Shown: positions 10,463 through 51,307, counted from the first letter of the stretch. The stretch: DNA of 64,000 bases from an uncultured virus (IMG/VR IMGVR_UViG_3300022833_000008) (IMGVR_UViG_3300022833_000008), one strand, 5' to 3'. The notes: generated by a model from the sequence alone, not told the origin. Translations and numbers: made by a program.

Positions 10463-10482
10463 AGTAATTGTACGGGCTTTGT
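10463..10482 (+). repeat. Motif B copy 1 (AGTAATTGTACGGGCTTTGT)
   Basis: 20-bp identity with 11071-11090; core recurs at 21388, 34446 and, on the minus strand, 51289-51307. Confidence 0.9.
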
Positions 10483-10527
10483 GTATAAAAAACTATCAGA
10501 ACTGGGCTAAAAAGTGGGGAAAAACAG

Positions 10528-10541
10528 CCCTCTATAATGAA
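10528..10541 (+). promoter_or_regulatory. Putative early promoter (CCCTCTATAATGAA)
   Basis: 14-bp identity with 13778-13791; contains TATAAT; at the start of a transcription unit. Confidence 0.6.
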
Positions 10542-10575
10542 GAAACATCAAGTAACCCAAATGGAAGATAATAAA

Positions 10576-10737
10576 ATGTTTAATCAAATCACAACTACAG
10601 TCGTAACTGCAGCTATTATGATAAATACTGCCTCAACAATTGTCAAGTTCATAAACTCGCGCAGATCAAATAACCAAGTCAAGGCTTTAGAAGTTAACGT
10701 TATGAAAGACATCACCCCAAAAGAAAATAAGGTTTGA
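10576..10737 (+). CDS. Small hydrophobic hypothetical protein
   Basis: ATG after GGAAGA; N-terminal hydrophobic stretch. Confidence 0.5.
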   Translation: MFNQITTTVVTAAIMINTASTIVKFINSRRSNNQVKALEVNVMKDITPKENKV

Positions 10738-10761
10738 TGTAAAACAGAAAAGAGAGTTGCT

Positions 10762-10974
10762 GTGGAAGAAGAAAATATATTTAACAAACTACGTCGAACT
10801 TTAAATAGAAATAAATCTTCAGAGAGTGTTTTGATAAACGACATACTAGATATAGTAGAAGAAAAACTAGAAGAAAATAACAAAAGTAAAGAGGCAAATT
10901 TAAAAAACTTCTTTAAATTTATTGGAACAGCAGCAGTTGTGATTTGTACAGTTAGCTTGCTAAAAAAGGATTAA
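10762..10974 (+). CDS. Small protein with C-terminal hydrophobic segment
   Basis: FFKFIGTAAVVICTVSLL. Confidence 0.5.
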   Translation: MEEENIFNKLRRTLNRNKSSESVLINDILDIVEEKLEENNKSKEANLKNFFKFIGTAAVVICTVSLLKKD

Positions 10975-10982
10975 TTAGAATA

Positions 10983-11075
10983 ATGAAAGTTACTACTATA
11001 TTTATGATTGTATCATTAGCGGCAGAAGTAATTGTTATGATAAATCAATACAACAAGAAATGGAAGCTGCAGTAA
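10983..11075 (+). CDS. 30-aa hydrophobic peptide (not in ORF track)
   Basis: MKVTTIFMIVSLAAEVIVMINQYNKKWKLQ; AAGGA upstream. Confidence 0.4.
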   Translation: MKVTTIFMIVSLAAEVIVMINQYNKKWKLQ

Positions 11076-11090
11076 TTGTACGGGCTTTGT
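11071..11090 (+). repeat. Motif B copy 2
   Basis: Identical to 10463-10482. Confidence 0.9.
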
Positions 11091-11113
11091 AAACAAAACA
11101 GATAGGAAACACT

Positions 11114-11407
11114 ATGCACAAACTCTTTAGAGGCACTACTCAACGTGAAGCTCAAGAGTTGAGCAAAGATATCCAAACTCGCCTTTTAACACACTGGACA
11201 GACTCTTACGAAAAGGCTTCAATGTACAGCAAGGGCGCTGTTATTGAACTATTGTTTGACGACTTACCACCTAACGTAGACCACTACTCCTCTTGTTGTG
11301 TAGGTGATGTAAAGCACGGCAGTTTTAAACAGTGGGTAATTCCTCGCGCTTACTTTGAAAAAACTATGTCTTGCTTTGTAGAGGAGCATAGCTTAAAAAT
11401 CACTTAA
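11114..11407 (+). CDS. Hypothetical early protein
   Basis: AGGA RBS, 97 aa. Confidence 0.65.
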   Translation: MHKLFRGTTQREAQELSKDIQTRLLTHWTDSYEKASMYSKGAVIELLFDDLPPNVDHYSSCCVGDVKHGSFKQWVIPRAYFEKTMSCFVEEHSLKIT

Positions 11408-11565
11408 AACATAAAGGACAACACCATGCAAGTACTAATATTATTCCCACAACCTCACTGGTGCGATGTTTTAAAGGAAACCGAAGAGTACTACGCAGCC
11501 TGTTGTATGATGGGTGTCAACACACTAATCTCAAAAGATGGTTCAGAAAAGACAAGGAAGAAAAC

Positions 11566-11760
11566 ATGAAATGGTACGTAAAAGAAACTTCCGTAGAAAA
11601 CACTGTTTGTGATTTTGGACCTTTTGAAAAGATTACAGATGCAGCATTTTTTGTGCATACTCATCAGATGCCTTGGAGTGAAGACTTCTTAAGCAAAATT
11701 GAGATTATCAAAGTATCTGATAGTTTTAAGATTAACCCCAACATTTACACAGGAGTATAA
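11566..11760 (+). CDS. Hypothetical protein
   Basis: ATG after AAGGAAG RBS inside ORF 11461..11760. Confidence 0.55.
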   Translation: MKWYVKETSVENTVCDFGPFEKITDAAFFVHTHQMPWSEDFLSKIEIIKVSDSFKINPNIYTGV

Positions 11761-11762
11761 CT

Positions 11763-12224
11763 ATGACTATCAACCTTAAAGAAAATACAACTTACGTAAC
11801 TCGTAGTGGAGAAAAAGTATACATCGCTATCCAAAAGTATGATCGTTTTAGTAGCAATAGCGGTGTTGAGGTAGGAGGCGCTCGCGTTCCTCTGTGGAAG
11901 CAAGATGGAAGGTTCGACTCTTTTCTATCCGAGTCTCTAAACAAGACAGATCACGATATTGTAGCTGAGTTCAAAAATAATGAAAAAATAACCTTAGAAC
12001 TTTCACAACAAGAATGTAAAATTTTACAAAGTATTTTTGGTAGTTTAAGCGGATCTTCAGAGGGACCACGAGGGGATATTGATAAAATCTATAATAAGAT
12101 TGAGAATGCCACAGGTTACAATTTTGAAACAGCAACAGAAGAAAAAATTCTAGATGAAGATCAAGACCACTTAATCGGCTATGACTTGTGCTTAAAAGCT
12201 GGTAAAAATTACTCAAAAGGATAA
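11763..12224 (+). CDS. Hypothetical protein
   Basis: AGGAG RBS; YVTRSGEKV...W..DG....DHDIVAE phage-type domain. Confidence 0.65.
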   Translation: MTINLKENTTYVTRSGEKVYIAIQKYDRFSSNSGVEVGGARVPLWKQDGRFDSFLSESLNKTDHDIVAEFKNNEKITLELSQQECKILQSIFGSLSGSSEGPRGDIDKIYNKIENATGYNFETATEEKILDEDQDHLIGYDLCLKAGKNYSKG

Positions 12225-12229
12225 ATACT

Positions 12230-12589
12230 ATGACACGTCAAGAAATGTTCTCAAAAGCCGTATCTGGTGTAATTGCTCAAGGTGGTCCTTCTAGGACTAA
12301 AGAAATTTGTCTTTATCGTGGACCTACTGGCCGTAAGTGTGGTATCGGTCACTTAATTGAAGACAAAGACTACTTAAAAGAAATGGATGACCATGAAGTA
12401 AACGGTGGTTCTGATGTCTCAAATCTTTATGGAAGAGATGTTTTACCCAGTTACTTAGGGAGTAATCTCCAGTTTCTAGTATCATTGCAATGCTTACATG
12501 ATGGAATGGAGCTAGACTCAGACCTACCTCTTTTTATAGAACGTTGTGAAAGGTACGCTAAAAATAACGACTTAAAAATGCCAACATAA
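12230..12589 (+). CDS. Hypothetical conserved phage protein
   Basis: QG..S....CLYRGP.GRKCGIGHLI...LQ..HD pattern. Confidence 0.65.
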   Translation: MTRQEMFSKAVSGVIAQGGPSRTKEICLYRGPTGRKCGIGHLIEDKDYLKEMDDHEVNGGSDVSNLYGRDVLPSYLGSNLQFLVSLQCLHDGMELDSDLPLFIERCERYAKNNDLKMPT

Positions 12590-12605
12590 AACAGGAGTAT
12601 AACTT

Positions 12606-12995
12606 ATGATTACCGCAGCAGCAGCACTATGTCTTTCTTTAAATGTTTTCTTTGAAGCAAGAAACGAACCTTTAATGGGCCAACTCGCAGTCATAGAAGT
12701 GACAATGAACCGAGTAATTTCTAACAAATATCCAGACAAAGTGTGTGCTGTTGTTTTCCAAGACTCTCAATTCTCTTGGACAAATGACGGTAAACATGAC
12801 GACCCAACACGTATGTCTTATCTTGATCAGTTAGCTTGGGAACACTCTCAAGCTGTTGTTGAAAGCTACGTATCAGGAAACATTGACATGCCTTCTTCCG
12901 GTGCTATTATGTATCACGCAGACTACGTAAGCCCATACTGGACTTCTAGCTATGATATTGTAGCTATTGTCGGAACTCACATCTTTTACAAATAA
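12606..12995 (+). CDS. Cell wall hydrolase (SleB/Hydrolase_2 family)
   Basis: CLSLNVFFEARNEPLMGQLAV..V..NRV...YP..VC.VV.Q..QFSW and GTHIFY. Confidence 0.9.
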   Translation: MITAAAALCLSLNVFFEARNEPLMGQLAVIEVTMNRVISNKYPDKVCAVVFQDSQFSWTNDGKHDDPTRMSYLDQLAWEHSQAVVESYVSGNIDMPSSGAIMYHADYVSPYWTSSYDIVAIVGTHIFYK

Positions 12996-13010
12996 TCTAA
13001 GGATAACTAA

Positions 13011-13757
13011 ATGACTAATTTCAAAGTAGGCGACAAGGTAAAGATCATTGGTAATAGCAATTATAGTGATAATAAAGTAGGAGACATCGGAGTAATTAAG
13101 AGTAACGAGAGTGTCTCAGGTTGTTGGCGTGTTTTTGTAAAAAATGGAACGGATTGTTCTATCTGGACACAGCCAAGTGACATGGAACTAATTGAAGCTT
13201 TCAAAGTAGGCGACAAAGTTAAAATCATTGGTAATGTAGCTCTTAGCTGTAACAAAATAGGGGACGTCGGTATTATTACGTATAATCACGGAGACCAGTT
13301 AGCAGTACAAGTATCAGGAGGTAAAGACTTTGGAAACTGGTCTTGCAATTTTGATCTAGAACTAGTTACAGAAGACGTTCCGACTGGTTACAGGGGTCTC
13401 CCAAAAAATATGAACTTGAAGACTGGAGATGTTGTCAAAGGTCTTACCAATTACTACACCATTAAAAATGAATCAGTCGGAGATTTTAAGATTGAACGCT
13501 GTGGTTGTGCTTACACACTAATATCACGTGCTAACACAGAAGATAACCCTTGGCTCATTTTAACAGATAGAGATGCTGTTTGTAGTTATACAAATGATAT
13601 TGCTTGTTTCAATGGGATTGACGTTGCATATCGTAAGAAAGCTCCTGTTTATGAAGTTGTTGATTTACGTATTTACTCTGACGACCTTCCAATGCAACCC
13701 GCAACAGTAAGGACAAAAGACGGTAATCCAGATTGGGAAACCTTAAAAAAGTCTTAA
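13011..13757 (+). CDS. Hypothetical protein with tandem FKVGDKV (KOW/SH3-like) repeats
   Basis: FKVGDKVKIIGN twice, 60 codons apart. Confidence 0.7.
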   Translation: MTNFKVGDKVKIIGNSNYSDNKVGDIGVIKSNESVSGCWRVFVKNGTDCSIWTQPSDMELIEAFKVGDKVKIIGNVALSCNKIGDVGIITYNHGDQLAVQVSGGKDFGNWSCNFDLELVTEDVPTGYRGLPKNMNLKTGDVVKGLTNYYTIKNESVGDFKIERCGCAYTLISRANTEDNPWLILTDRDAVCSYTNDIACFNGIDVAYRKKAPVYEVVDLRIYSDDLPMQPATVRTKDGNPDWETLKKS

Positions 13758-13777
13758 AAATAACTGAGAAATTATCC

Positions 13778-13791
13778 CCCTCTATAATGAA
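13778..13791 (+). promoter_or_regulatory. Putative early promoter (CCCTCTATAATGAA)
   Basis: Second exact copy, intergenic, just before an RBS. Confidence 0.6.
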
Positions 13792-13812
13792 ATAAACAAA
13801 GGAATAAAAACT

Positions 13813-14031
13813 ATGGAAACTCTTATTATTATTGCAGTCTTGGCATTCACATGTTGGGTTGTATACATTATGTCTGAAGCTCGCGGTCGTAACGCAGCAG
13901 GTTGGACTATCGCAGCTTTGTTAGTTAGCCCACTACTTGTAATGTTGATTCTTCTCGTAATCGGAAAAACTGAAGAAAAAGTAGACGAAGAATTTAAAGA
14001 ACAGTTAAGTAAAATGAAGTCGCGATTGTAG
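13813..14031 (+). CDS. Small two-TM membrane protein (superinfection-immunity-like topology)
   Basis: Two hydrophobic helices, ARGRN..GW motif. Confidence 0.6.
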   Translation: METLIIIAVLAFTCWVVYIMSEARGRNAAGWTIAALLVSPLLVMLILLVIGKTEEKVDEEFKEQLSKMKSRL

Positions 14032-14061
14032 AAAAAAAAACTAAACTTAGAAAGGTGTGTT

Positions 14062-14259
14062 ATGACAATTGCTAAAAGAGGTACTCCTGAATACCTAGAA
14101 GAAATCAAGTTTTCTAATCTTGTGAAAGACATTGATAAACAGTGGTCTCATACTTACGTTGACAATAGTGTTGAAAAGTCAATTGAAGAGATTTTTGCAG
14201 AACTTAAAGCTATCGGCGATAACGCCAAAACAACCAATAAGGAAGACTTTTATGACTAA
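14062..14259 (+). CDS. Hypothetical protein
   Basis: AAGG RBS, 65 aa. Confidence 0.55.
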   Translation: MTIAKRGTPEYLEEIKFSNLVKDIDKQWSHTYVDNSVEKSIEEIFAELKAIGDNAKTTNKEDFYD

Positions 14260-14494
14260 TTTTGTACGCCGGAACTTCCCAACAGCAAAAGAACTTTCCA
14301 AGGGTGCTAACTATTCACTTCTTCAAAACCGCCCTTATGGAAAACGTATTCACTCAGATCGTCTTCAAGCAGTCGGTATGATTCTTGCTGGCAAATCTAT
14401 TCAAGAAGTAGCAGTAGAGTTTAACTGCTGTAAACTATCGGTTCGTAATTGGGTTAAAACCTTCTCGGATAACACACCTCGACTAGACGGATAA
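14252..14494 (+). CDS. Helix-turn-helix DNA-binding protein
   Basis: GKSIQEVAVEFNCCKLSVRNWVKTF HTH pattern; ATG after AAGGAAG. Confidence 0.7.
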   Translation: MTNFVRRNFPTAKELSKGANYSLLQNRPYGKRIHSDRLQAVGMILAGKSIQEVAVEFNCCKLSVRNWVKTFSDNTPRLDG

Positions 14495-14501
14495 ACTAAT
14501 T

Positions 14502-14541
14502 AAAACAACTTTTTGGCTTTTTAGTCAGGAGGTTGTTTTTT
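14502..14541 (+). terminator. Intrinsic terminator
   Basis: AAAACAACTTTTTGGCT-TTTT-AGTCAGGAGGTTGTTTT with G.U pairs, followed by T runs. Confidence 0.65.
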
Positions 14542-14669
14542 CAATACTATTTTTTTTTTTCAAAAACAAGAAAAAGATAAAAATTCTTGTAACAATAATA
14601 AATGTTACTGTCCAACAATTAAGTAGAGTACTAATTGGTACCCAGTCTACAATTATAAATGGAGTAACT

Positions 14670-17006
14670 ATGAACGTAATGCAAGAACTTTGCAAAAACC
14701 TTGATTACCAAAAATCAAAACTTATGAAAACAAACAAACCAAGTGAGGTAGATACAAGAAACAAAGCTTGGATCCTTTATCAATTTGATCCAAAAGAACT
14801 CATCACTCTAACCTACGGGCATGTTCTTACGAACTTAGAACGACAAAGTGAGTTAGCTAACACCTTATCAAGTGTTGGTGGTGCTATGTTTAGGAACCTA
14901 CGTAAAAGAGTAAAGGTGCTTGAACGAGAAAGTGTTAATGATGATAACACAGAACTCAAAGAGTTAAGGTTTTTTATTGGAACTCATAATAAACTAGGTC
15001 TACCTAACTGCAAGTTAAAACTAGAAGAAGAATCAAACAAAGTAGAAATCAAAGAAGTGCATCTTGCATGGTTTTTGTTTCAATCTTATCTTGATTTAGA
15101 AATACTATCGTTACGTCTAAAAGTAGGTAGTAACAAAGGAGGGCGAAAGAAAAAGCACACTTCCTATCATGTAAATGTAAAAAACATTGAAGCACTTCAT
15201 TCTATTATGGAAACAATCGACATTGATAGTGTTGAGTTATTTCCAATGCGTAGTAAGCCAGATCACTGGGAAAGTGGAAAGTTCTTTCACAACACTGGTT
15301 TCCCGATTATCAAGAAAAAACCTCATCAAGACGCAATCAAGAAAGTAAAACAAGGTCAGATGGATTACGTCGTAAAAGCTTTAAATAAGCTAGGTGATGT
15401 GGGTTGGAGGATCAATCCTTTTATTTTTGATGTGTTTAAGAAGGCAAAGACACACCAAGGTAAAACACCTTTTAAAGCTATGAAAGAAGTTGATCCAGAA
15501 AAGAAAGCTTCTTTGTTAATTGAGCTTGCTGCTATTGAAAGGTTAGCAGAAAGAAATCAGTTTGATCCTTTCTACCACTTGTACAACTGCGACTTTCGCG
15601 GTAGAATTTACCCTAACACTGCTTTCTTGCACGAACAATCTTCTGACAACGCAAAAGGTTTACTCTTGTTAGATGAAAGTGTGCCGCTAGGTGAAGATGG
15701 TATGTTCTGGCTTACAGTTCACACCGCTAACATGCTAGGTAACGACAAGGTTACTCTAGCTGATCGTTCAGAGTTTGTAATAGAAAACTGGTCCACGTAT
15801 TTAGGCTATGTAGAAGATCCTCTTGAGAATGATGGTTGGATGGACGCAGACAAACCTTTGTGCTTCTTGGCTTGCTGTTACGAACTTTCGCTAATAAATG
15901 TCTGGGTAAACGACAAAGGATTAAACATAGAGGACTTCCCTTCTAACCTGCCGATCTACATCGACGGTAGCAATAACGGCGTTCAGCACCTAGCCGCCAT
16001 GTCTAAAGATGAAAATGTAGCTCCGCTTGTGAATTTAGTACCTCAAGGGCTTCCAGGCGATGTTTACATGTTTATTGCAGATAAGGTAATTGAAGTAGTT
16101 GCTGAAAAAGCAAAAGAGACACCAAAGAAAGTATCAGACCAGTTTGATAAGGTTTTTAAAACGTTAGTAAGTTTAAAACTAGAAATATCTAAAGTTAGCA
16201 GTAATAGTAAATCTGAACTTTACCGTAACGCAGTAGCTCGCCTAAGAGAATACAAAAACCAAACTTACGACCTAAAAAAACAAATGGGCGCTGTCTTCTG
16301 GCATAACGTAAAAGACCGTAAAATCTGGCGTAAAGGTGTAAAAAGACCCGTTATGACACTCGGTTATGGCGGCACTCAACACGGTATGGTAGATATGGTA
16401 GAAGACGACACCCGTGATCTTTCTGATTACTTGCGTGATAAGGACTACTCTTGGTCGGTTTTCTTGGGCCACTTAATCTACAGCACTTGTAAGAAAGAAC
16501 TAAAAGGGCCATCAGACATGTTAGAAATGTTTGAAAAGCTCGGTGTATCTGAAAATCAGAAAGGTAAGCATGTATCTTATGATCAGGTTATAACAGGTTT
16601 CCCTATGGTACAACTCTATGTAGAGACTAAGACAAAACAGGTAGAGCTGTATCGCGGTGAAAGCATGTACCGCATTAGTGTAAGTTTAAGGAAAACAGAA
16701 GAATTAAACAAGGTTAAACAAAAGCAATCAACTGCTCCAAATGTTGTACACAGTGTCGATGCTGTTCACGTAACTATGGTTGTACACGATTCTGATTATC
16801 AAGTTACAGTTGTACACGACTCTTTCGGTTGCCATGCTGGTAACATGAACCACTTGTTTATGAATGTTAGATACAAGTTCGTTGAGCTTTACGAACAAGA
16901 ACCCTTAGAGCATATCTTTAGTCAGATGGACGCTCTTCATTTAATCCCAGAGAAAGGAAACCTAGATGTTTCTAAAGTCATTGAATCAGATTTCGCCTTT
17001 GCTTGA
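14670..17006 (+). CDS. Single-subunit DNA-directed RNA polymerase (T7/T3 family)
   Basis: DFRGRIY, IDGSNNGVQH (motif A), RKGVKRPVMTLGYG (motif B), APNVVHSVDA, VHDSFG (motif C). Confidence 0.97.
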   Translation: MNVMQELCKNLDYQKSKLMKTNKPSEVDTRNKAWILYQFDPKELITLTYGHVLTNLERQSELANTLSSVGGAMFRNLRKRVKVLERESVNDDNTELKELRFFIGTHNKLGLPNCKLKLEEESNKVEIKEVHLAWFLFQSYLDLEILSLRLKVGSNKGGRKKKHTSYHVNVKNIEALHSIMETIDIDSVELFPMRSKPDHWESGKFFHNTGFPIIKKKPHQDAIKKVKQGQMDYVVKALNKLGDVGWRINPFIFDVFKKAKTHQGKTPFKAMKEVDPEKKASLLIELAAIERLAERNQFDPFYHLYNCDFRGRIYPNTAFLHEQSSDNAKGLLLLDESVPLGEDGMFWLTVHTANMLGNDKVTLADRSEFVIENWSTYLGYVEDPLENDGWMDADKPLCFLACCYELSLINVWVNDKGLNIEDFPSNLPIYIDGSNNGVQHLAAMSKDENVAPLVNLVPQGLPGDVYMFIADKVIEVVAEKAKETPKKVSDQFDKVFKTLVSLKLEISKVSSNSKSELYRNAVARLREYKNQTYDLKKQMGAVFWHNVKDRKIWRKGVKRPVMTLGYGGTQHGMVDMVEDDTRDLSDYLRDKDYSWSVFLGHLIYSTCKKELKGPSDMLEMFEKLGVSENQKGKHVSYDQVITGFPMVQLYVETKTKQVELYRGESMYRISVSLRKTEELNKVKQKQSTAPNVVHSVDAVHVTMVVHDSDYQVTVVHDSFGCHAGNMNHLFMNVRYKFVELYEQEPLEHIFSQMDALHLIPEKGNLDVSKVIESDFAFA

Positions 17007-17223
17007 AGAAGATATTGAGGTAAAAGTACACTATGAAGGTGAAGTTAACAAAGCTAAAGTGATAGGGGTACTTCTAGGAGACCAAGGTTTCGAAGGAGTG
17101 TGCGCTATGGTTTCAACAAATGAAACTGAATTTTATGCAGAGCTTTACGAAAAAGATTACGGAGACTATTTAGTAGAAATTACTGACGAGCAATACCAAA
17201 AGTACCTTGATTATAAGGACTAA
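16966..17223 (+). CDS. Hypothetical acidic protein
   Basis: ORF overlapping the RNAP end; start uncertain. Confidence 0.5.
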   Translation: MFLKSLNQISPLLEEDIEVKVHYEGEVNKAKVIGVLLGDQGFEGVCAMVSTNETEFYAELYEKDYGDYLVEITDEQYQKYLDYKD

Positions 17224-17243
17224 AAATACCCGCAAATAATGAT
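17224..17243 (+). promoter_or_regulatory. Putative phage RNAP promoter, motif A (AAATACCCGCAAATAATGAT)
   Basis: One of five exact intergenic copies; upstream of SSB. Confidence 0.85.
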
Positions 17244-17302
17244 TATAAGTGTTCAATTCCGATCACATAATCCAAACACAAAACCTATTAGGAAGAAATA
17301 AC

Positions 17303-17854
17303 ATGGCTGATAACGCAACAATCGTACTTATGGACGTAGAAATTTACTTTGCTAAACTGGACCCTGAGCGCCCTAACTCTCGTTTTGACAAAGATCGCCC
17401 CACTTGGGAAATTCAAATCCGAACTAAAGACAAGGCAGTTGCTAAAGATTGGAAAGCAAAAGATCTTCGTGTAACTACAGACGATAACGATGACGGTGTA
17501 TTTTATCGTGTTAACTTGAAAAAGCGATCTAAGAAGGCAGATGGTACTAATACTAAACCTGTTAATGTGGTTGCTGGTGATCTTTCGCCTATTGACCCAA
17601 AAACAATTGGTAATGGTTCTCGTGGCAATCTGTCAATTTTTCAGTATGATTACAAAGTAAATAATAAAGAAGGTCGGGCATCCATGTTAATGGGTATCCA
17701 AGTTACACTTCATAATGAATATACTCCAAAACCTATGGACGGTGGTTTTGCCCCTACTGAATATAAAGTCAATAAGATTGAAGATAATCACGATGCCGAC
17801 GACGACATGGTATCGGGTAAGAACGACGACCTTGACGACGACATTAACTTTTAA
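17303..17854 (+). CDS. Single-stranded DNA-binding protein (T7 gp2.5-like)
   Basis: IGNGSRG...GIQV pattern, acidic C-terminal tail ending in Phe. Confidence 0.8.
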   Translation: MADNATIVLMDVEIYFAKLDPERPNSRFDKDRPTWEIQIRTKDKAVAKDWKAKDLRVTTDDNDDGVFYRVNLKKRSKKADGTNTKPVNVVAGDLSPIDPKTIGNGSRGNLSIFQYDYKVNNKEGRASMLMGIQVTLHNEYTPKPMDGGFAPTEYKVNKIEDNHDADDDMVSGKNDDLDDDINF

Positions 17855-17882
17855 ACGTCTTGAACTGCAATTCTAAAATTAC

Positions 17883-17911
17883 GGTCATCCTTTAGCTAGG
17901 GTGACCTTTTT
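17883..17911 (+). terminator. Intrinsic terminator
   Basis: GGTCATCCT-TTAGCT-AGGGTGACC + TTTTTT. Confidence 0.8.
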
Positions 17912-17929
17912 ACCAAATTGGAGAGTATT

Positions 17930-18313
17930 ATGAATATCGAAGGTCTAATGAGAACTGCTTACAATCACAAAGAGCCTAGTAATCTTTACATTCTTTATTG
18001 GATAAGCGTACCTCAACACCATAACACACATCAAGGTTATGTTGGAGTCACTGGGCTAACTGAAGTAGGGTTAGGCATGAGGTATATGGTTGAGCTAGAC
18101 GAAGTGAAAAGAGGAAAAAGAACCTCAAGAACAGTTCACAAAAATATGTTATACTATCAAAAAAGTGTTACAATCTCAATCATTGGTAAAAATCTTACTC
18201 GTGAGCAAGCTTATTTGTTAGAAAATGTTTTGCGACCTAATGATAATACAGGTACAGATTTCAATAGTTATAACTGGAACGAAGTAAAAGGCGGGAAAAC
18301 CCTAAATGTATAA
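17930..18313 (+). CDS. Possible GIY-YIG-like nuclease
   Basis: YILYW...GYVGVT...R...E...N spacing resembles GIY-YIG. Confidence 0.4.
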   Translation: MNIEGLMRTAYNHKEPSNLYILYWISVPQHHNTHQGYVGVTGLTEVGLGMRYMVELDEVKRGKRTSRTVHKNMLYYQKSVTISIIGKNLTREQAYLLENVLRPNDNTGTDFNSYNWNEVKGGKTLNV

Positions 18314-18869: not shown

Positions 18870-18871
18870 AC

Positions 18872-20117: not shown

Positions 20118-20151
20118 GCTTGTTTTATAAATTAATTGTTGGAGAATATCT

Positions 20152-20337: not shown

Positions 20338-20357
20338 CAAAAACAAAGGATTAGGGA

Positions 20358-23257: not shown

Positions 23258-23276
23258 TAAGGAATTGGAGTTATAA

Positions 23277-43516: not shown

Positions 43517-43539
43517 CCTAAAGTAGTATTGAGAATAGT

Positions 43540-44895
43540 ATGACAGATCAAGAAGAATATATCGATAACGAAGTAGTACTACATGAAGGACAGTCAGCGG
43601 TTATCTCTGATATGTTTGTTGACAATGTTGTACGCTATATGGTTGTCAACGCTTCCCGTGGTTTCGGTAAGTCAGTCTTAGGGGCCACTGCTGCTATGTT
43701 AGCAGTACAAGAACTTATTGACCTTCCAGCAGAAGTACCTAACAAGAATGTAGCTATCATTGCGCCTACTTATGCACAGGCTGTAGACATCTACTACCCT
43801 ATTGTAGCCTACATGCTAGGTGGGGAAGAAGCCGCTATCAAGTCCAGCAGGGTAGCGGGTATGTTTTGGTTCCCTAACAATGTAACCCTTAAGATTTGGT
43901 CCTATGAGGCCATTGAGCGTATGCGTGGTAGTGGTCAGTACTTTGTTGTAGCCGATGAGGTCTGTTCTTGGAAGGGTGCAGGTTCTAACTTAAAGGAATC
44001 TTGGGAGTCTGTTATTCAGCCCTGTATCTCTACACGTTGGTCTAAGAAGAACGCAGACCGTTGGGGTGCAAAACCCGGACGTGCTTTAATCATTAGCACT
44101 CCAATGGGCTATAACTACTTCCATGAAATGTATAACCGTCAAGATAGTGATGATCAGTGGAAGTCTTATACTTATACTTACACAGACTCTCCTTACTTAG
44201 ACCCAGAAGAAATTGAGAGAGTAAAGCTAACACTTGATCCTCTTAAGTTTGCTAGAGAGTATTCAGCGTCCTTTGAAGACTCCGGTAACACTGTATTCTA
44301 CACCTTTAATCGTGCAGAGCATATTGATAAAGACCTGCCTTACTTTGATGCTAAAGAAGATATCCATGTAGCTATTGACTTCAACGTCGGTATTATGGCT
44401 TCTGTTGCCTTTGCTCTCCGTGGTAATCAGATGCACATCTTAGACGAGTTTCAAGGACACCCTGATACAGAAACTCTAGCTAAACGTCTTGCTGAGAAGT
44501 ACAAAGGACACCGGATTATCTCTTATCCTGACCCTAGTGGTCGTGCTAGGAAGTCTTCTGCTGCTGTTGGTAGTACTGACTTCTCGATCCTTACTGCTAA
44601 TAAGATCATTACTAAAGCACACCAGAAAGCACCTCCTATCATTGATAGTGTAGCTGCTGTAAATAAGAAATTTAAGAACGCCAATGGTGATATCGACATG
44701 TATATTCACCCCCGATGTGTTAATACTATCAAATCTATTGAACGAACTACTTGGGTAGAGAGCAATCCCGACACAGCTACTATTTGCAAAAAAGAAGGTG
44801 TTGAACACTGGAGCGATGGTTTACGCTATGCTGTAGAATACTTGTTCCCTGTTCGTGGTGGTTCTAAACTCGTAACAAGAGGCTTCGGCTTCTAA
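43540..44895 (+). CDS. terL: Terminase large subunit
   Basis: ASRGFGKS Walker A, VVADE Walker B, ISTPMG, AIDFN, DGLRY nuclease motifs. Confidence 0.95.
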   Translation: MTDQEEYIDNEVVLHEGQSAVISDMFVDNVVRYMVVNASRGFGKSVLGATAAMLAVQELIDLPAEVPNKNVAIIAPTYAQAVDIYYPIVAYMLGGEEAAIKSSRVAGMFWFPNNVTLKIWSYEAIERMRGSGQYFVVADEVCSWKGAGSNLKESWESVIQPCISTRWSKKNADRWGAKPGRALIISTPMGYNYFHEMYNRQDSDDQWKSYTYTYTDSPYLDPEEIERVKLTLDPLKFAREYSASFEDSGNTVFYTFNRAEHIDKDLPYFDAKEDIHVAIDFNVGIMASVAFALRGNQMHILDEFQGHPDTETLAKRLAEKYKGHRIISYPDPSGRARKSSAAVGSTDFSILTANKIITKAHQKAPPIIDSVAAVNKKFKNANGDIDMYIHPRCVNTIKSIERTTWVESNPDTATICKKEGVEHWSDGLRYAVEYLFPVRGGSKLVTRGFGF

Positions 44896-44911
44896 CTTAA
44901 GGAATACTACT

Positions 44912-44983
44912 ATGCCAAGCGGAAAAGGTACTTACGGGAAAAAGGTAGGTCGCCCTACTAAAAAGAAACCCGTTAAGAAATAA
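44912..44983 (+). CDS. 23-aa basic peptide (not in ORF track)
   Basis: MPSGKGTYGKKVGRPTKKKPVKK with AAGGA RBS. Confidence 0.65.
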   Translation: MPSGKGTYGKKVGRPTKKKPVKK

Positions 44984-45004
44984 CAAACAAAGAAGGGAGT
45001 CGTT

Positions 45005-45376
45005 ATGGCTTTAATTGAATACAAACTCGATAACGACTCTCTATCTTTTAATCTTGAACTATCCAGAGTAGGGCCGCAGGGTATTAAGGGTGATATTGGT
45101 TCTACTCTTAAAGGCTATGCGTTCTTGGACTTTGGCACTCAAAGTAAGACAGCAGAGGTTGTTGTAACTAATGTCTCTACAGTCGCAGAAAACTCTGTAA
45201 TCTTACCTACTATGATAATAGAAAACACAGCTTATCACTCAGCTGATGAGTTACTTGTAGATCCCATTAGGCTAGCTGTTAAAGATATCGTAGCTGGTGA
45301 AGGTTTTACTATCTATGGTGAAATGGATAATGCAGAGGCTAACGGCATATACAAGATAAATTGGTCTTTATTATGA
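45005..45376 (+). CDS. Putative virion structural protein
   Basis: Short collagen-like GPQGIKGD; late region. Confidence 0.5.
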   Translation: MALIEYKLDNDSLSFNLELSRVGPQGIKGDIGSTLKGYAFLDFGTQSKTAEVVVTNVSTVAENSVILPTMIIENTAYHSADELLVDPIRLAVKDIVAGEGFTIYGEMDNAEANGIYKINWSLL

Positions 45377-45507
45377 GGAGCATAAATAATGACACCCGAA
45401 GAAATTAAAATATCTGAAGAACTAAGGGTTGTTCGTGCAGTTAAGACTGCTGCTATCCTTGTTCAAAATCAAAGAATTCTAGCTAACATGCACATGAGGA
45501 TAGAATA

Positions 45508-45720
45508 ATGAGCTTAGAAGATGACGTAACTAATCTAACACAACAAACAACAAACTTGCTCAACGTATTCCTTACTCAAAAAGAGAACGTTGGAAACCAA
45601 ATTAAAGTTGCTGTAGCTGAATCAGAAAATGCAGCCCAAGAGCCATTGATTTCCATGGCAGTAAATTTGATCGACACGCAGGTAATGCTTGTACAATTAT
45701 TAAGTAGGCAATCAACATGA
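45508..45720 (+). CDS. Putative fibre-associated protein
   Basis: MSLEDDVTNLTQQTTNLL helical N-terminus similar to the next gene. Confidence 0.5.
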   Translation: MSLEDDVTNLTQQTTNLLNVFLTQKENVGNQIKVAVAESENAAQEPLISMAVNLIDTQVMLVQLLSRQST

Positions 45721-46316
45721 CAATTGAAACACAAGTCGCAGCTTTGACTGCCTCTACTACCGCCCTAATTACTGCCGTTGGCGCACAACAAGTTACTGTT
45801 GATGACGCCATCTTGGCCTTTAACGCAGCTATTTTGACTGTTAACAACGACCTTAATAACGTTAACAACACAAGTGACGAGAATAAGCCAGTAAGTATAG
45901 CTCAACAAATTAAGTTTGACGAACTACAACCTACACTTGTATCTGGCGGAAACATCAGTACTATTAATGGTGTATCCGTACTAGAAGGCGGTGATCTAGT
46001 CATTGCCCGTAGCCCTACCTCTCTATCATCCTTGCCTTACGAATCCCGTGGCACTCTAGGCTACGACCCTGTAAGCCCTAACTTACCTAACGTAGTTGAT
46101 GACTCTGTAGTAGTAGAGGGTATTGGGTTATTCATGTGGGTTGATACTACTGATGAACCTGAAGACGATGAGACTTGCTTCACAACACCTTCGGGTCAGT
46201 GGCTGTTAGCTCAACCCGCCTTTGACTTTATAGAAGCTTACGCTTTGATAGAAAAATCTATTATTGACGAAGTAGTTGAAGACTTTTTGCTTTCTCGCCT
46301 TGTACACCCCCATTAA
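45717..46316 (+). CDS. Putative fibre protein
   Basis: NVNNTSDENKPVSIAQQ and LVSG.NI.TING motifs typical of fibre proteins. Confidence 0.6.
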   Translation: MTIETQVAALTASTTALITAVGAQQVTVDDAILAFNAAILTVNNDLNNVNNTSDENKPVSIAQQIKFDELQPTLVSGGNISTINGVSVLEGGDLVIARSPTSLSSLPYESRGTLGYDPVSPNLPNVVDDSVVVEGIGLFMWVDTTDEPEDDETCFTTPSGQWLLAQPAFDFIEAYALIEKSIIDEVVEDFLLSRLVHPH

Positions 46317-46335
46317 AATTCTAAGGAAATAACAC

Positions 46336-47772
46336 ATGTCTACACTACGCTCATTACGTCTACTTGGATCCGTTGAATCCGGCATAACACTCGGTCCTGC
46401 TTTCAACACTTTTCTACAAGATCCCGGTCGGCTGTCTGAATTTCACGTTCTAATGTCTATGCGCGGTCAAGCACGTCGTATGGCTGCTAGTACAACTTCA
46501 ATGACAGCTATTATGGCTTCTTCGATTGCGACTAACGCAGTGTTTGCTGATACAGACATTAATAACCCCATGGTAGCTAAAGCTATTGTTGCTAATCAAA
46601 CAGCTATCACAACTGTTTCTAACGACCCCGTGACACTTAACATTATCGGCACAAACCCTATTTCTTGGAGTCTGTTTAAGAATTCTCCTTGGTACGAGTC
46701 CCGTATTAAAGAAGTTGTAGCTAACCTTGCTGATCTAGAACCAACTGCTTATACAACTGCAAACGATATTGTAACTAACCCTAGTGCAGCTGCAAGTGTT
46801 GTTTCTTATCCACGCGCCATGTCCGCAGTTATTGCTAGTCCTCCTACCTTTACCGCAATGGCGGGAAATGCTGTTGCAATGGGTATCGTAGCTTCTGACG
46901 CAGTTGCTACAGGTATCGTGGCTAATGATTACTCGGCTATTAGCATTGCTAGTTCTTCAACAGAAGCTATGGATGAATTTGCAGGCTCTAATGTTGCCAT
47001 GCCAGTTCTTTCTGGTGCTGCTGGTGCTGTTCAAGCTATTGCCGCTAACCCTGCTGCTTGGCCTGTTTTCTTGGCATCACCTTACTTTGGTGCAAGTGAT
47101 AAGACTATCATGCTTAACCTTGTTGGTCTTGATCCGAGCGACTATAACTCCTTTAATGCTGTTATTGCTGATGCAAATGCTTTAGCTCTTGTAGCTGCGA
47201 ACACAGAAGCGGTACAAACTTTTGCAGGTAATTCTGGTGCAATGACTGCACTTACTGCAAGCGTTAACATTAGTGTTATCCTTGGTAGTGACGTTGCAAT
47301 GGGTGTTATTGGCACTGACACAGCAGCCATGACTAGCTTTATTAACACAACTTCAGCTATGGTACCTTTGCTTAATAGTTCTGCTGCTAAAGGCTTTATT
47401 GTTTCTTCTACACCTCTTGTAGATGCCGTTGCAGCTAATGCCGCTATGGTTTCTTACATGATTGCTAACGGTGTAAAGACAATCCCCGCATCATTACGCG
47501 CTAGTACTACAATAACTTCACAGCCCTTTGATGGTATCCCTAACAAAGTTATGCTGCTTAAGCTGCGTGCAAACAACATTGGCGCTATCCCCGGAACCTA
47601 TACTTTTGCTGGTAGCCCTGCTGCTGGTACTGGTGCAAGTGATGCTATTGCGCTTAAAGGTACTGTTATTGAAACTCGTGTTTCCGGTTATACAGACTTG
47701 TATTGGGGTGTTAGTGGTATTACCGTAACACCCGCAGTTTCTCCTGAAGTAACTTACTTTGACATGACTTAA
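46336..47772 (+). CDS. Ala-rich repeat protein (putative virion appendage)
   Basis: Periodic AM.A.A.S repeats and a duplicated NP..W..F..SP block. Confidence 0.6.
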   Translation: MSTLRSLRLLGSVESGITLGPAFNTFLQDPGRLSEFHVLMSMRGQARRMAASTTSMTAIMASSIATNAVFADTDINNPMVAKAIVANQTAITTVSNDPVTLNIIGTNPISWSLFKNSPWYESRIKEVVANLADLEPTAYTTANDIVTNPSAAASVVSYPRAMSAVIASPPTFTAMAGNAVAMGIVASDAVATGIVANDYSAISIASSSTEAMDEFAGSNVAMPVLSGAAGAVQAIAANPAAWPVFLASPYFGASDKTIMLNLVGLDPSDYNSFNAVIADANALALVAANTEAVQTFAGNSGAMTALTASVNISVILGSDVAMGVIGTDTAAMTSFINTTSAMVPLLNSSAAKGFIVSSTPLVDAVAANAAMVSYMIANGVKTIPASLRASTTITSQPFDGIPNKVMLLKLRANNIGAIPGTYTFAGSPAAGTGASDAIALKGTVIETRVSGYTDLYWGVSGITVTPAVSPEVTYFDMT

Positions 47773-47795
47773 TATAATTAGAAAGGAACTATAGC

Positions 47796-49265
47796 ATGGC
47801 TGTAGAAATTAAATCAGGTGCAGGTTCAGACTTAGCTACAGTTGACCCTCAGAGTAAGGCTATCCGAGTCACTCACTATTCTAGCGATGGGTTAGAAGTT
47901 TCCCAAGAGCTTCCTGTAAAACTAACTACCAACACTGCTTCTGCAATTAACGAAGACATTTTAATATCAACCATTGTAGAGCCTTATAAATTCGTATCAC
48001 TACAAGTGAAAGGTACATGGTCTGGTGCTGTAACAGTTCAAGGATCAAACGACGGTATTCAGTTTTTTGATGTTGTGTTTCAAGATGTAAGTGACACAAC
48101 TTCCCCCTATAGCACAAGCTTGACATCTAACGTCTTGATTAAAATTCCTGTATTGTTTCGAAGATTAAGAGTTAGGGTTTCAACATACAACTCTGGTAAT
48201 GTCGAAGCAGAGGCTTATGGTTATCACGAAGCAAACTCTTTCAATTCAGTAAGTCAAGTTGGCTCTGTTACGCTTAGTCCTGAAACTGACAAGGTAATTG
48301 GTACTGTTAATGTAGCTGATCAAACCACTAGCTTGACTAGTATTATCTCCGCATCTGACACACAAGTATCTGCACCTGCGGGTGACGGTGTCATGGTCAC
48401 TGGTACAGCTAGTGTCGATTCTTATGTAGGAGTTCCTACTTTTGCAAACGACTCCTCTTGGGTTGTTGAAATTGATGGTGACTTAGGAACAGGCACTACT
48501 TTTCATTTTGAAGGGTCTGTGAGTTCTACTAACGGCATAGATGGAAACTGGACCACTATTAACGGCAGACAAACAGGCGTAGTCAATACTTCCTTAGATT
48601 CTAAAACTACTACTGCGGGTTTCTTCCGTGGTACTCTTGCGGGGATTAAATTCTTCAGAGTACGTGCTACTGGCGGTACTGGTATTAATGCTGATGTGAC
48701 TATTCATGTCGGTTATGGTTCAGGCGCAGTCTTCTTGAACGCTTCTATCCCAGAAGGCTCAAACAACATCGGCTCTGTAGCTCTAGCCACGGACAGTACA
48801 GTATCTCTAGAATCAGGAACTAACGTCATAGGTGATGTAGGTTTAACAGCAGGTAACAAGATCGGCTTAGACTCTGGTAGTGAGCTTATCGGTACAGTTA
48901 AGGTCATCCCTTCTATTACAGACTCTCCTGACTACCTAAAGTTTATTTCGGCAACAGGTGTCAACTCTACTGTTGTAAAGGCTTCGGCAGCTAACTTGGG
49001 AATTCTTCACATTGTTAACGGTGCTGCTACCTTGCGGTATTTTAAGTTATACAATAAAGCAACAGCACCTATCGTTGGAACAGACATTCCTTTGATTACT
49101 ATTACACTATCTCCTAACTCTGCTAGTAACTTCACTCTACCTGCTCTTGTAGGTATTGATTTTTCAATTGGTCTTTCTTTTGCAGTACTACTCGGTGTAC
49201 AAGATAGTTCAACCACTCCTTTTACTGTTTCAGGAGAAGTTACAGCAATGCTTGCTTACACTTAA
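47796..49265 (+). CDS. Putative virion structural/fibre protein
   Basis: Ser/Thr/Gly-rich beta repeats (GTWSG.V..QGS.DG; IG.V repeats). Confidence 0.55.
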   Translation: MAVEIKSGAGSDLATVDPQSKAIRVTHYSSDGLEVSQELPVKLTTNTASAINEDILISTIVEPYKFVSLQVKGTWSGAVTVQGSNDGIQFFDVVFQDVSDTTSPYSTSLTSNVLIKIPVLFRRLRVRVSTYNSGNVEAEAYGYHEANSFNSVSQVGSVTLSPETDKVIGTVNVADQTTSLTSIISASDTQVSAPAGDGVMVTGTASVDSYVGVPTFANDSSWVVEIDGDLGTGTTFHFEGSVSSTNGIDGNWTTINGRQTGVVNTSLDSKTTTAGFFRGTLAGIKFFRVRATGGTGINADVTIHVGYGSGAVFLNASIPEGSNNIGSVALATDSTVSLESGTNVIGDVGLTAGNKIGLDSGSELIGTVKVIPSITDSPDYLKFISATGVNSTVVKASAANLGILHIVNGAATLRYFKLYNKATAPIVGTDIPLITITLSPNSASNFTLPALVGIDFSIGLSFAVLLGVQDSSTTPFTVSGEVTAMLAYT

Positions 49266-49310
49266 TAACAATAACAACTCTCCAACTGAGGTTCGAGAAA
49301 GGAAAATAAA

Positions 49311-49784
49311 ATGGCAAGACTTAATAACCCAACGACTTCACAGCCAATGGGCCGTAGTCGTTTATCGTCTCCATCTAAGGATACAGTTAATGATAACGGT
49401 ACAGTACTGGTTTCTGTTGTTGACGGTGAACAAATTCAAATGCAACTAACAGTAGGTTGGATGACTAACCTTTCAAGTGCAAACATCGTGGCTAAGATTG
49501 TTGAAGGTAGTAACTTAGGTGATGGTGAGTTGCCCGAAGGTACCGCTACAAACCCTATTGTAAAAACTTTGGTGATTTTAGATCAAGATGCAACAGACAA
49601 CGTATTCAAGATTGTTATCCCAGAAGATTTGACTTCAACTTGGTCTCAAAAGGCAACACCTAATAAACCTGTTTACGGATTTATTGGGCTTGAGATTGAT
49701 GACGGTGGGATTGGTTCTGCAAAACAAATCTGGAAGCCCTTGCGTGGGCTTGTAGAAGTCTTGTATAGCCCTTCGGAGGCTTAA
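49311..49784 (+). CDS. Putative baseplate/fibre adaptor (BppU-like)
   Basis: Late region; LEIDDG...WKPLRG.V.V pattern. Confidence 0.45.
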   Translation: MARLNNPTTSQPMGRSRLSSPSKDTVNDNGTVLVSVVDGEQIQMQLTVGWMTNLSSANIVAKIVEGSNLGDGELPEGTATNPIVKTLVILDQDATDNVFKIVIPEDLTSTWSQKATPNKPVYGFIGLEIDDGGIGSAKQIWKPLRGLVEVLYSPSEA

Positions 49785-49788
49785 TAAC

Positions 49789-50259
49789 ATGACTACTAAG
49801 TACAGTTTAATCCTCTCTCCAAACGAGTACAGTTTAGAAATTAATGAAAATCAGGTATCTCTCTCTCTTAGTAGAGTAGGTGGACAAGGCTCTCAAGGGC
49901 CGCTAGGTTCTTCTATCGACAATGCTTATGTAAACTCAAGTAATGAACTTCTTCTTGTAATCAAAGATCACTTAGGAGGAGAGACTTTATTCAACGCAGG
50001 TGATGTTTCTACTAACTCGACCTCTTTAACCAACATTCAGATTACTTCTGTGCAAGATGGTGACATGCTGTATTATAACGCAGCTACAACCAACTGGGAA
50101 AATAAAGCTCATACTCTTACTACTGCTAGCGTCTCTGATATTGACAGTACTAACAAAGCGGACGGGGCTGTTCTCTTGTATGATGGTTCTTCTTCTAAGT
50201 ACAAGGCCACTACACAAATAAATAATTCAAACTTATACTTAATCGGAGGGTCATACTAA
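49789..50259 (+). CDS. Putative fibre protein
   Basis: Repeated L.DV......DG..L.Y......W units; ends IGGSY. Confidence 0.55.
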   Translation: MTTKYSLILSPNEYSLEINENQVSLSLSRVGGQGSQGPLGSSIDNAYVNSSNELLLVIKDHLGGETLFNAGDVSTNSTSLTNIQITSVQDGDMLYYNAATTNWENKAHTLTTASVSDIDSTNKADGAVLLYDGSSSKYKATTQINNSNLYLIGGSY

Positions 50260-51287
50260 TGGCTACTAAAATTATTCTAAAAAAATCCGTCACTAGTGGC
50301 TCTGCTCCTGTAGCTGGTGACATTGATGTCGGCGAACTCGCTATTAACCTTGCAGACCGAAAGATTTATGCTAAAGATAATAGCGGTGCTATTGTACTCT
50401 TAGGCGGTGCTTATGTAGACTCTAGCGCCCCTGCTAACCCCGCCGAAGGTGACTTGTGGTACGACACTACAAACAACCTTTTAAAGGCTCACAACGGCTC
50501 TGGCTTTATTGCTGCTGGTTACTCAACACTAGCTGCCTTAGAAGATGTAACTATTACCTCTGTTTCTAATGGCGATTTCTTGCGTCATAACGGTACAGCT
50601 TGGGTAGACTCTACTATTCAAAACAGTGATGTTTCTGAAGCTATGATTACACAGCATGAAGACGCTATTACAATTGTAGCTTCTCAAGTAAGTGACTTCG
50701 ATACTGAAGTTGCAAACAACTCTGCTGTAACAGCTAACACTGCCAAGAATACTAACGTATCGACTAACCTCGGTTACAACTCTGCTTCTAATAATGGTGT
50801 CGTTACTTCTTCTGATGGTACTAACGCCACTATTCCAGCTGCAACTACTTCTGCAGCAGGTCTTCAGACAGCAGCTGACAAGACTAAGCTAAATAATATT
50901 GAGACTGCTGCCGATGTAACAGATACAGTAAATGTTACTGCTGCTGGCGCTCTTATGGATAGTGAACTTACAAGTATTGGCTCTGTAAAAGAAATTGATC
51001 AAGGTCTAACAACGACCTCTAACGTCAATTTTAATAACATGATCCTTGCTGGCAACTTGACTGTAAATGGTACTACTACTTCTGTCAACTCTAACGAAGT
51101 AAACATTGGTGACTCTATCATCGTGCTTAATTCTGATGAAACTGGAACACCTTCTGAGAATAGTGGTTTTGAAGTTGAACGTGGCACTTCCACTAACGTA
51201 TCTTTTGTTTGGAACGAGACAGACGATGCTTGGGATCTCTCTGATGAGACCTTGCAAAACGTAATCCTTGATGGTGGTACTTACTAA
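50259..51287 (+). CDS. Tail/head fibre protein
   Basis: IILKKS...P....GELAINLADRKIY N-terminus; GNLTVNGTTT; ends DGGTY. Confidence 0.75.
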   Translation: MATKIILKKSVTSGSAPVAGDIDVGELAINLADRKIYAKDNSGAIVLLGGAYVDSSAPANPAEGDLWYDTTNNLLKAHNGSGFIAAGYSTLAALEDVTITSVSNGDFLRHNGTAWVDSTIQNSDVSEAMITQHEDAITIVASQVSDFDTEVANNSAVTANTAKNTNVSTNLGYNSASNNGVVTSSDGTNATIPAATTSAAGLQTAADKTKLNNIETAADVTDTVNVTAAGALMDSELTSIGSVKEIDQGLTTTSNVNFNNMILAGNLTVNGTTTSVNSNEVNIGDSIIVLNSDETGTPSENSGFEVERGTSTNVSFVWNETDDAWDLSDETLQNVILDGGTY

Positions 51288-51288
51288 C

Positions 51289-51307
51289 TCTACAAGGCCC
51301 GTACAAT
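51289..51307 (-). repeat. Motif B copy 5 (minus strand, intergenic)
   Basis: Reverse complement is ATTGTACGGGCCTTGTAGA, identical to 21387-21405. Confidence 0.9.

Follow-up and report, generated by a model that had tools for sequence, protein, structure and literature searches.

A dispersed motif and an adjoining HNH_3 endonuclease gene in an uncultured siphovirus-type phage: a candidate system of sequence-specific DNA interruptions

Site-specific nicks in phage DNA have been known in T5 since the 1960s and were found later in the phiKMV-like phages and in phage tf. The nick consensus is 5'-CGACNNNNNCCTA/CTCCGG-3' in the phiKMV-like phages and 5'-TACT/RTGMC-3' in the Pseudomonas putida phage tf; the "nickase" of tf is hypothetical, sciA and sciB have been mapped in T5, and the portions of these papers that deal with the nicks of T5, phiKMV-like phages and tf give their purpose as unknown and their enzyme as not identified (PMC3517423; 10.1101/619015; PMC10644984). 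A 15-bp motif, searched as TTGTACGGGCYTTGY, is dispersed in five copies through a 64-kb stretch of DNA from an uncultured virus (IMGVR_UViG_3300022833_000008; the whole stretch analysed is called the window), and one of these copies adjoins a small gene for an HNH_3 endonuclease. The motif is non-random and conserved, the ends of contigs from related phages recur at one bond within it, and gene and site are adjacent and co-distributed. The motif is probably, if by no means certainly, the cognate recognition and cleavage site of the adjoining enzyme, the two making up an interruption system of the T5, phiKMV-like and tf kind that is carried as an accessory cassette.

As the nicks are described in those portions of the literature, T5/BF23, the phiKMV-like phages and tf resemble the window in having few copies per genome of an asymmetric consensus of 9-19 bp, in having sites both inside and between genes with the break at a fixed bond, and in the loss of some copies between close relatives; the phiKMV-like phages also encode a T7-like RNA polymerase (RNAP), as does the window. 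The window consensus is unrelated in sequence to those of T5, phiKMV and tf, and the window differs from these phages in that its sites can be linked to one particular HNH_3 gene and that gene and sites together behave as a gain/loss cassette. The nicks of T5, phiKMV and tf are ligatable (3'-OH/5'-P) and belong to virion DNA, whereas breakage in the window system is read from contig ends.

The HNH protein itself invites comparison with free-standing or intron-borne HNH homing endonucleases such as T4 MobE and I-HmuI, the latter being a nicking enzyme. Like these, it is a small phage-encoded protein with a catalytic domain of the HNH_3 type, sporadic among close relatives and with a target site beside its gene. 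Strand-specific nicking is described for MobE in the relevant part of its report (PMC2790892). A homing endonuclease has a single site, which the carrier genome has lost or protects from cutting and which endonuclease-less genomes keep intact, whereas carriers of the window-type gene retain 2-5 intact sites, some of them newly evolved in essential genes; the homing definition fails because carriers keep, and even acquire, sites. The window protein also differs from I-HmuI in length (116 against 174 residues) and in having no I-HmuI C-terminal part.

Packaging HNH proteins of the HK97 gp74 and N.phiGamma type belong to the Pfam family HNH (PF01844), not HNH_3. They too are small, encoded at the end of the late operon and next to a DNA end, but they adjoin terS, terL and portal genes, cut a single cohesive-end site (cos) and read 3-5 bp. 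N.phiGamma, in the passages describing it, is a strand- and site-specific, cos-adjacent HNH nickase with the site AC^CGR (PMC3592412; PMC4027164). The window has five sites, its HNH gene lies 32 kb from terS and terL, and the system is dispensable in close relatives; the HK97-type definition thus also fails.

The motif in the window and in related phages

The five matches, four on the plus strand and one on the minus strand, lie where a preliminary description of the window had placed them. Their chance expectation is 0, no match having arisen in 100 dinucleotide-preserving shuffles, and allowing up to two mismatches adds no further copy in the window (0.21 expected). The copies and the elements beside them are as follows, with positions counted from the first base of the window.

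10065-10415, plus strand: small HNH_3 endonuclease gene, 116 amino acids (Pfam PF13392, E=3.5e-10; PHROG 99)
10468-10482, plus strand: copy 1, TTGTACGGGCTTTGT, intergenic; putative break between 10471 and 10472
10483-11075, plus strand: variable cassette between copies 1 and 2, with an early-promoter-like box CCCTCTATAATGAA at 10528
10537-10737 and 10762-10974, plus strand: small open reading frames (ORFs) in the variable cassette
11076-11090, plus strand: copy 2, intergenic; putative break between 11079 and 11080
21388-21402, plus strand: copy 3, in the family-A DNA polymerase gene (polA), codons 22-27, H-C-T-G-L-V
34446-34460, plus strand: copy 4, TTGTACGGGCCTTGC, in the ClpP-like protease gene, F-C-T-G-L-A
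51292-51306, minus strand: copy 5, intergenic

Copy 1 lies 52 bp beyond the end of the HNH gene at 10415, with the hairpin and T-run that follow that gene on its 5' side and, after a further 49 nt, a TATAAT early-promoter-like box on its 3' side; copy 2 lies 23 nt 5' of the ATG of the ORF at 11114-11407. Copy 4 stands just 5' of a GxAAS-type serine region. Copy 5 comes 4 nt after the stop of a tail-fibre-like ORF (50259-51287) and before a fibre-like ORF (51369-52574), and an identical copy is present in the IMG/VR contig G001. The longer identities noted at the outset also hold: copies 1 and 2 have 20 identical bases (10463-10482 and 11071-11090), and copies 3 and 5 have 19 bases in common as reverse complement.

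The two coding copies are read in the same frame and both encode C-T-G-L, a tetrapeptide found nowhere else in the 104 ORFs (19,415 amino acids) of the window. That they do so with codons the genome disfavours, as had been remarked, is borne out by the counts, ACG making up 72 of 1,126 threonine codons (6.4%) and GGC 203 of 1,227 glycine codons (16.5%). A synonymous-codon shuffle, the codon-preserving comparison that the preliminary description had called for, gave a mean of 0.062 coding copies of the 10-mer as against the 2 observed, and two were reached in 1 of 500 shuffles.

Relatives were sampled as IMG/VR loci retrieved around polA (80), the RNAP gene (80), the tape-measure C-terminus (80) and the HNH gene (64). 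The motif recurs in about half of this family of uncultured phages, usually as two or three copies at the junction where the tape-measure gene gives way to the early genes, with a further 1-3 copies dispersed in either orientation and some of them within genes; near-complete relatives hold 2-5 copies each. Their consensus is WA-TTGT-ACGGGC-YTTG-Y (W = A/T). In 86 non-redundant contexts (66 plus, 20 minus) positions outside the searched word are also conserved, the A before TTGT in 63, the W before that in 76 and the Y after TTG in 75, and the word thus comes to about 17 bp. Coding copies in relatives lie in different frames and genes (L-Y-G-L in L021, V-R-A-L in several others), and in polA copies with at most one mismatch occur at three different codons in three lineages; this argues for selection on the DNA and not on the peptide.

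The closest other strain available for comparison, the contig G002, is about 90% identical to the window and has three sense and two antisense copies. Copies 1, 2 and 5 stand as conserved islands within intergenic DNA that is diverged or non-homologous between the two, copy 1 being an island of 20 nt in a region otherwise only 74% identical, and copy 4 is unchanged inside 165 nt that carry 10 substitutions. Such islands, and the extension of the word beyond what was searched, favour the earlier suggestion of selection on the DNA itself. Synonymous-site conservation, which had been put forward as the test, gave a divided answer: it held for copy 4, but the polA copy has a synonymous change in G002, although it is retained in L002, whose polA is 99% identical. 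Conservation of the motif is thus real but not absolute. A further antisense copy is seen at G002:39813 (plus), between two head-region genes about 2 kb before window position 1, and the genome of the window may hold a sixth copy just outside it.

The closest cultured relative, the roseophage DSS3_VP1, is without the motif (at 3 mismatches, 13 hits against 13 for a reversed control), and the passages on this phage in PMC8323127 hold no mention of nicks or termini. Among the literature matches listed for the motif string, the occurrences are, by title, primers or unrelated.

Contig ends, the HNH_3 gene and the cassette

Contig ends of relatives (196 unique ends, 82 upstream or left and 114 downstream or right in gene orientation) fall at the motif in a particular register. 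Six upstream ends from different assemblies (L014/L215, L022, L031, L192, L214, L224) start exactly at ACGGGC, and a seventh (L185) starts in equal register with TCGGGC. Downstream, seven ends stop 3, 12, 18, 18, 19, 20 and 27 nt beyond the TTGT^ACGGGC bond and six more stop 53-164 nt beyond it, with none among the 114 falling in the 200 nt that precede the bond; fewer than one end would be expected by chance in intervals of this kind. Ends occur at coding copies as well: L022 at 500 bp upstream of polA, L314/L315 in a small ORF and the right end of L214 in polA. Sister contigs bridge the break sites with TTGT in front, so the contig ends are not sequence boundaries, and in the one assembly that yielded both L344 and L192 these two contigs share 27 nt at the site, with a single upstream variant. 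A graph break caused by strain divergence should start at the first shared base, at or before TTGT (10 nt further upstream in the L031 lineage), and the ends are for this reason read as a real break.

Taken from these assemblies, the TTGT^ACGGGC bond appears to be a preferred site of DNA breakage with a fixed 5' end at A, coding copies included. The idea that the motif is a protein-recognised site such as a programmed nick gains from the six independent assemblies that start there. According to the part of PMC10644984 that treats the subject, the nicked DNA of T5/BF23 comes apart at the nicks when it is handled.

Of 14 junctions scanned with Pfam, 10 have the HNH_3 gene as the ORF that directly follows the tape-measure gene. 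At one further locus (L102:7226-7579) an endonuclease VII family gene (PF02945, E=3e-19) occupies the position of the HNH_3 gene, and one exact motif copy lies close by. In every HNH-bearing junction except L207 no more than about 60 nt separate the HNH gene from a motif copy; the gene stands before the copy in the window, L182 and L203 and after it in L105, L157, L180, L197, L218, L221 and L179. The protein is 63-79% identical among phages whose RNAPs are only 45-56% identical, and residues H51, D68, H69, N77, N81, N90, N91 and N93 do not vary across 10 sequences. Among cultured phages the nearest homologues (40-44% identity) come from coliphages, where they carry the annotation of HNH homing endonucleases. 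The one PDB sequence hit and the top-ranking fold, both of them weak, also belong to a nicking enzyme, I-HmuI.

Gene and motif also go together across the phages. At 40 junction-spanning loci both are present in 19, neither in 17 and the motif only in 4, and the HNH gene only in 0. Counted over 27 RNAP clusters, with L207 rescored as having the gene without a junction motif, the corresponding figures for both, neither, motif only and HNH only are 14, 13, 3 and 1 (Fisher p=3.9e-5), and 13 of the 16 HNH-less cluster states are without the motif. A decayed site, TTGTACGAACTTTG, persists in one lineage that lacks the HNH gene. Long contigs that bear the gene (the window, G002, G020, G021, G018) have more dispersed copies than HNH-less ones, of which G019 and G007 have none. 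The proposed partnership with the HNH gene before copy 1 is thus upheld by a physical and phylogenetic tie as far as sequence comparison can reveal it, while nothing connects the other partners that had been named, the helix-turn-helix ORF (14132-14494) and the GIY-YIG genes, to the motif.

Three RNAP clusters of at least 90% nucleotide identity contain members with and without the gene (L105/L104, L157/L159, L195/L199/L200). Between L105 and L104, whose flanks are 96-98% identical, a block of about 1.15 kb differs, and in L105 this block reads inverted motif, promoter, HNH gene, two ORFs, terminator and motif. The window and G002 become homologous at 11073, the start of copy 2, and cease to be so at 51309, just beyond copy 5, and the downstream fibre gene after copy 5 differs between the two. 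Strains that co-occur with the window replace 10565-11073 in Logan contigs, and the content of 10483-11075 also differs in G002. Counting L104/L105 there are three mosaic boundaries at motif copies, and by these alignments the block of HNH gene and motif appears to be a gain/loss cassette among near-identical phages, with homology breaking at the motif.

A proposed programmed interruption and its alternatives

The HNH_3 protein would break the motif-bearing strand between T4 and A5 (TTGT^ACGGGC), leaving a 5' end at A, and would act in this way on all good copies, be they between genes or within them; the phage would thereby hold a handful of programmed sequence-specific interruptions. Gene and sites would travel jointly as an accessory cassette at the junction of late and early genes. 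The breaks would serve as recombination points, which would account for module boundaries at the motif such as those of the cassette that copies 1 and 2 enclose and of the tail-fibre gene that follows copy 5. We infer that the HNH protein is the enzyme, that it makes a single-strand nick, that the interruptions are present in virion DNA and that they may benefit the phage. Beyond cleavage the function may be nick-stimulated recombination, nick-primed replication or selfish spread. A more specific proposal, possible but doubtful, is that the HNH_3 protein is a domesticated nickase which, with its 15-17-bp sites dispersed over the genome, constitutes a programmed-interruption system, and that its nicks start recombination or nick-primed replication. 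This would explain why most sites point along the direction of transcription, why new sites have repeatedly arisen in the polymerase gene and why host-range modules, e.g. the tail-fibre gene after copy 5, are exchanged exactly at sites, and it would then be the first programmed-interruption system with a nickase gene that can be named.

A number of observations weigh against cleavage of the motif by the HNH protein. Sites in the known nick systems are confined to one strand, whereas the window has four on the plus and one on the minus strand, and no contig end was seen at minus-strand copies among about 20 non-redundant minus contexts. A protein of 116 residues with no obvious extra DNA-binding domain must read some 15-17 bp. 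Its structure model is poor (predicted local distance difference test 65, predicted template-modelling score 0.45), and neither match to I-HmuI (1U3E) is significant, this being the sole hit to PDB by sequence (E 0.53) and the top row by Foldseek (E=0.81, with none at E<=0.001). The contig G017, rated complete, has two exact motif copies and no HNH homologue, co-distribution of gene and site could in part be linkage inside one cassette, and copy 3 has become TTGTACGGGTCTTGT in G002 by the synonymous change GGC>GGT.

The contig ends also have their limits, as they do not tell a nick from a double-strand cut or virion from intracellular DNA. When junction-type sites, i.e. the motif site plus promoter, were searched for in IMG/VR and in a metagenome collection, they were bridged in 13 of 14 IMG/VR and in 30 of 30 metagenome stretches, a contig end occurring in 1 of 14 and 0 of 30 respectively, so that breaks are the minority. 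Copies 1 and 2 of the window are spanned by a 988-nt Logan contig with no difference (X1, X2). Its depth is not doubled, although contig depth cannot rank parts, and the idea of a 608-bp terminal repeat between copies 1 and 2 was dropped without a refutation being claimed. Since most contigs bridge the sites, the break would be partial, or a nick from which a double-strand end arises only now and then. Among the 80 tape-measure-anchored loci, which are mostly from unrelated siphophages, the motif is present in 4 and a contig end at the motif in none.

A packaging or injection signal and an operator, both entertained in the preliminary description, come out as weaker alternatives. The plus-strand junction copy could be a packaging terminus, cleaved by terminase as a cos-like site or the edge of a terminal repeat with the HNH protein as packaging accessory in the manner of HK97. 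On that view the contig starts would mark real left ends of the genome, while the internal copies would act as secondary sites or stay silent. Of the six exact starts, five do lie 2.0-2.7 kb upstream of the RNAP gene, as expected for a T7-like left end with early promoters, the HNH gene is at the end of the late operon, and HNH genes beside cos sites are a theme described in the passages bearing on them in PMC3592412. This explanation is nonetheless unlikely. HNH gene and motif are missing from 13 of the 27 RNAP clusters, near-identical pairs such as L104/L105 included, and to come and go in this manner is unlike an essential packaging signal. The terS and terL genes (42877-44895) are distant, breaks occur at the coding copies in L022, L314/L315 and the right end of L214, all far from the junction, most contigs bridge the site, and the left-hand contigs include none that ends exactly at ...TTGT or with one constant overhang length. 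Alternatively there may be no DNA break at all, the motif serving only as the joint at which a mobile HNH element recombines or as the edge of its cassette, and the ends being assembly-graph breaks between diverging, co-occurring strains. The junction does vary by strain, ends that have no motif cluster at or near the HNH gene (L225, L266 at 115 nt after the tape-measure gene, L335, L337, L359), and the contigs G001 and G002 share an exact end at window 43577 where no motif is present. Yet TTGT and the A preceding it are common to nearly all copies and six contigs start at A5, the L344/L192 pair shows one upstream variant only, and joints placed exactly at TTGT|ACGGGC would themselves imply site-specific breakage; we regard an absence of breakage as quite improbable.

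An operator, binding a regulator that might be the HNH protein as autorepressor and controlling the adjacent host-type early promoters, would fit the junction motif, which stands right beside the AAAAAGTG...TATAAT box of the early promoters, in one orientation or the other; the spacing between motif and TATAAT varies from 19 to 49 nt, however, the copies in polA, in clpP and between fibre genes are without such a promoter, and the contig ends are left unexplained, which makes this role very improbable. The 5' ends at the A of "AC..." might also be nascent-strand starts made by the T7-like primase-helicase at a place where DNA synthesis always starts, such as an origin or strong primase site. 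Primers of T7 and T4 begin with AC, the fixed 5' end likewise begins with AC and the opposite side is ragged, and a gp4-like primase/helicase is encoded at 29097-30773. The motif is co-distributed with the HNH gene and not with the primase, which is common to all relatives, copies on both strands are present, and a word of 15-17 bp far exceeds any primase site known to us, so that a synthesis start is extremely improbable.

Three other roles were considered and set aside. A promoter for the phage RNAP does not suit a motif with two coding copies and one antisense copy that stays constant among relatives although the RNAP promoter word differs, and another 20-mer fits that role. As a -35 box of host sigma-70, TTGTAC with a 17-nt spacer leads to poor -10 hexamers at copies 1 and 2. 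A PhoB-type direct repeat (TTGTA-N6-TTGTA) is rejected, CGGGC, its supposed spacer, being the most conserved part.

If the pairing of HNH_3 enzyme and site is confirmed, the purpose of phage nicks becomes directly testable, with near-identical phages that have or do not have the cassette as a clean natural experiment, and a rare-cutting nicking enzyme might be had from it. The system offers a candidate enzyme that can be named, has only about 100 residues and would act on an unusually long, asymmetric site, and a visible connection of the sites to mosaic boundaries, the tail-fibre swap included. Systems of this kind can be picked up from metagenome contig ends alone.

Gene content, promoters and kinship

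By its genes the window comes from a siphovirus-type phage with a T7-like RNAP and with DSS3_VP1 as a distant relative. The long ORFs run on the plus strand throughout, and functions were assigned by PHROG matches:

3043-10065, plus strand: tape-measure protein
14670-17006, plus strand: T7-like single-subunit RNAP
21323-23257, plus strand: family-A DNA polymerase (polA-like) ORF
29097-30773, plus strand: gp4-like primase/helicase
34165-34788, plus strand: ClpP-like protease ORF
42877-43242, plus strand: terS-like ORF
43540-44895, plus strand: TerL
60826-62400, plus strand: portal
elsewhere, plus strand: gp2.5-like single-stranded DNA-binding protein (SSB), exonuclease, ribonucleotide reductase, tail fibres, PhoH, Dit/Tal-like proteins and holin/endolysin

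The nearest cultured phages are the siphoviruses DSS3_VP1 and PM1 (Naomviridae), with shared gene order and amino acid identities of 47% for polA and 43.5% for RNAP; a megablast of window 20000-36000 against cultured phages gave no match. Naomviridae DNA has deoxyuridine in place of deoxythymidine, and such DNA, if present in the Naomviridae-like phage of the window, would affect how the T-rich motif is read.

A separate 20-bp word, AAATACCCGCAAATAATGAT, has five copies at 17224, 27678, 41713, 60535 and 60667, all on the plus strand and all intergenic. These precede the SSB, exonuclease and portal modules, and relatives have a different word at the equivalent places; the word is probably the promoter of the phage's own RNAP, and the motif is unrelated to it, as had been held. 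The host-type early promoter box of the TATAAT type, CCCTCTATAATGAA, occurs at 10528 and 13778 within a longer repeat, AAAAAGTG(G/A)G...N...C(C/A)TCTATAATGA, at 10505-10540 and 13755-13790 and at many loci in relatives. Up to three such boxes occur per junction in relatives, and the box is itself a cause of contig breaks (e.g. L198).

The exact end shared by G001 and G002, two independent IMG/VR contigs, at window 43577 lies 37 nt inside the TerL ORF and just 3' of the terS-like gene; this may be the place where packaging starts, or a boundary that varies between strains. From 43577 to 60840 the window is 100% identical to G001, and G002 is about 97% identical there. Within TerL, G002 has some 684 extra bases (G002:63066-62381) relative to window 44391/44392, possibly an intron or homing-endonuclease insertion of the sort described for the TerL of DSS3_VP1. 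A k-mer table picks out a 36-bp tandem duplication in a small ORF at window 37262-37312.

Four runs labelled salt lake metagenome contain window sequence as Logan contigs, and these contigs were compared over window 9800-29799. Contigs from the same lake skip or replace 11759-12227, 14494-14724, 19590-20017, 24957-25118 and 25651-26109, and several strains with differing cassettes of small genes thus appear to co-occur.

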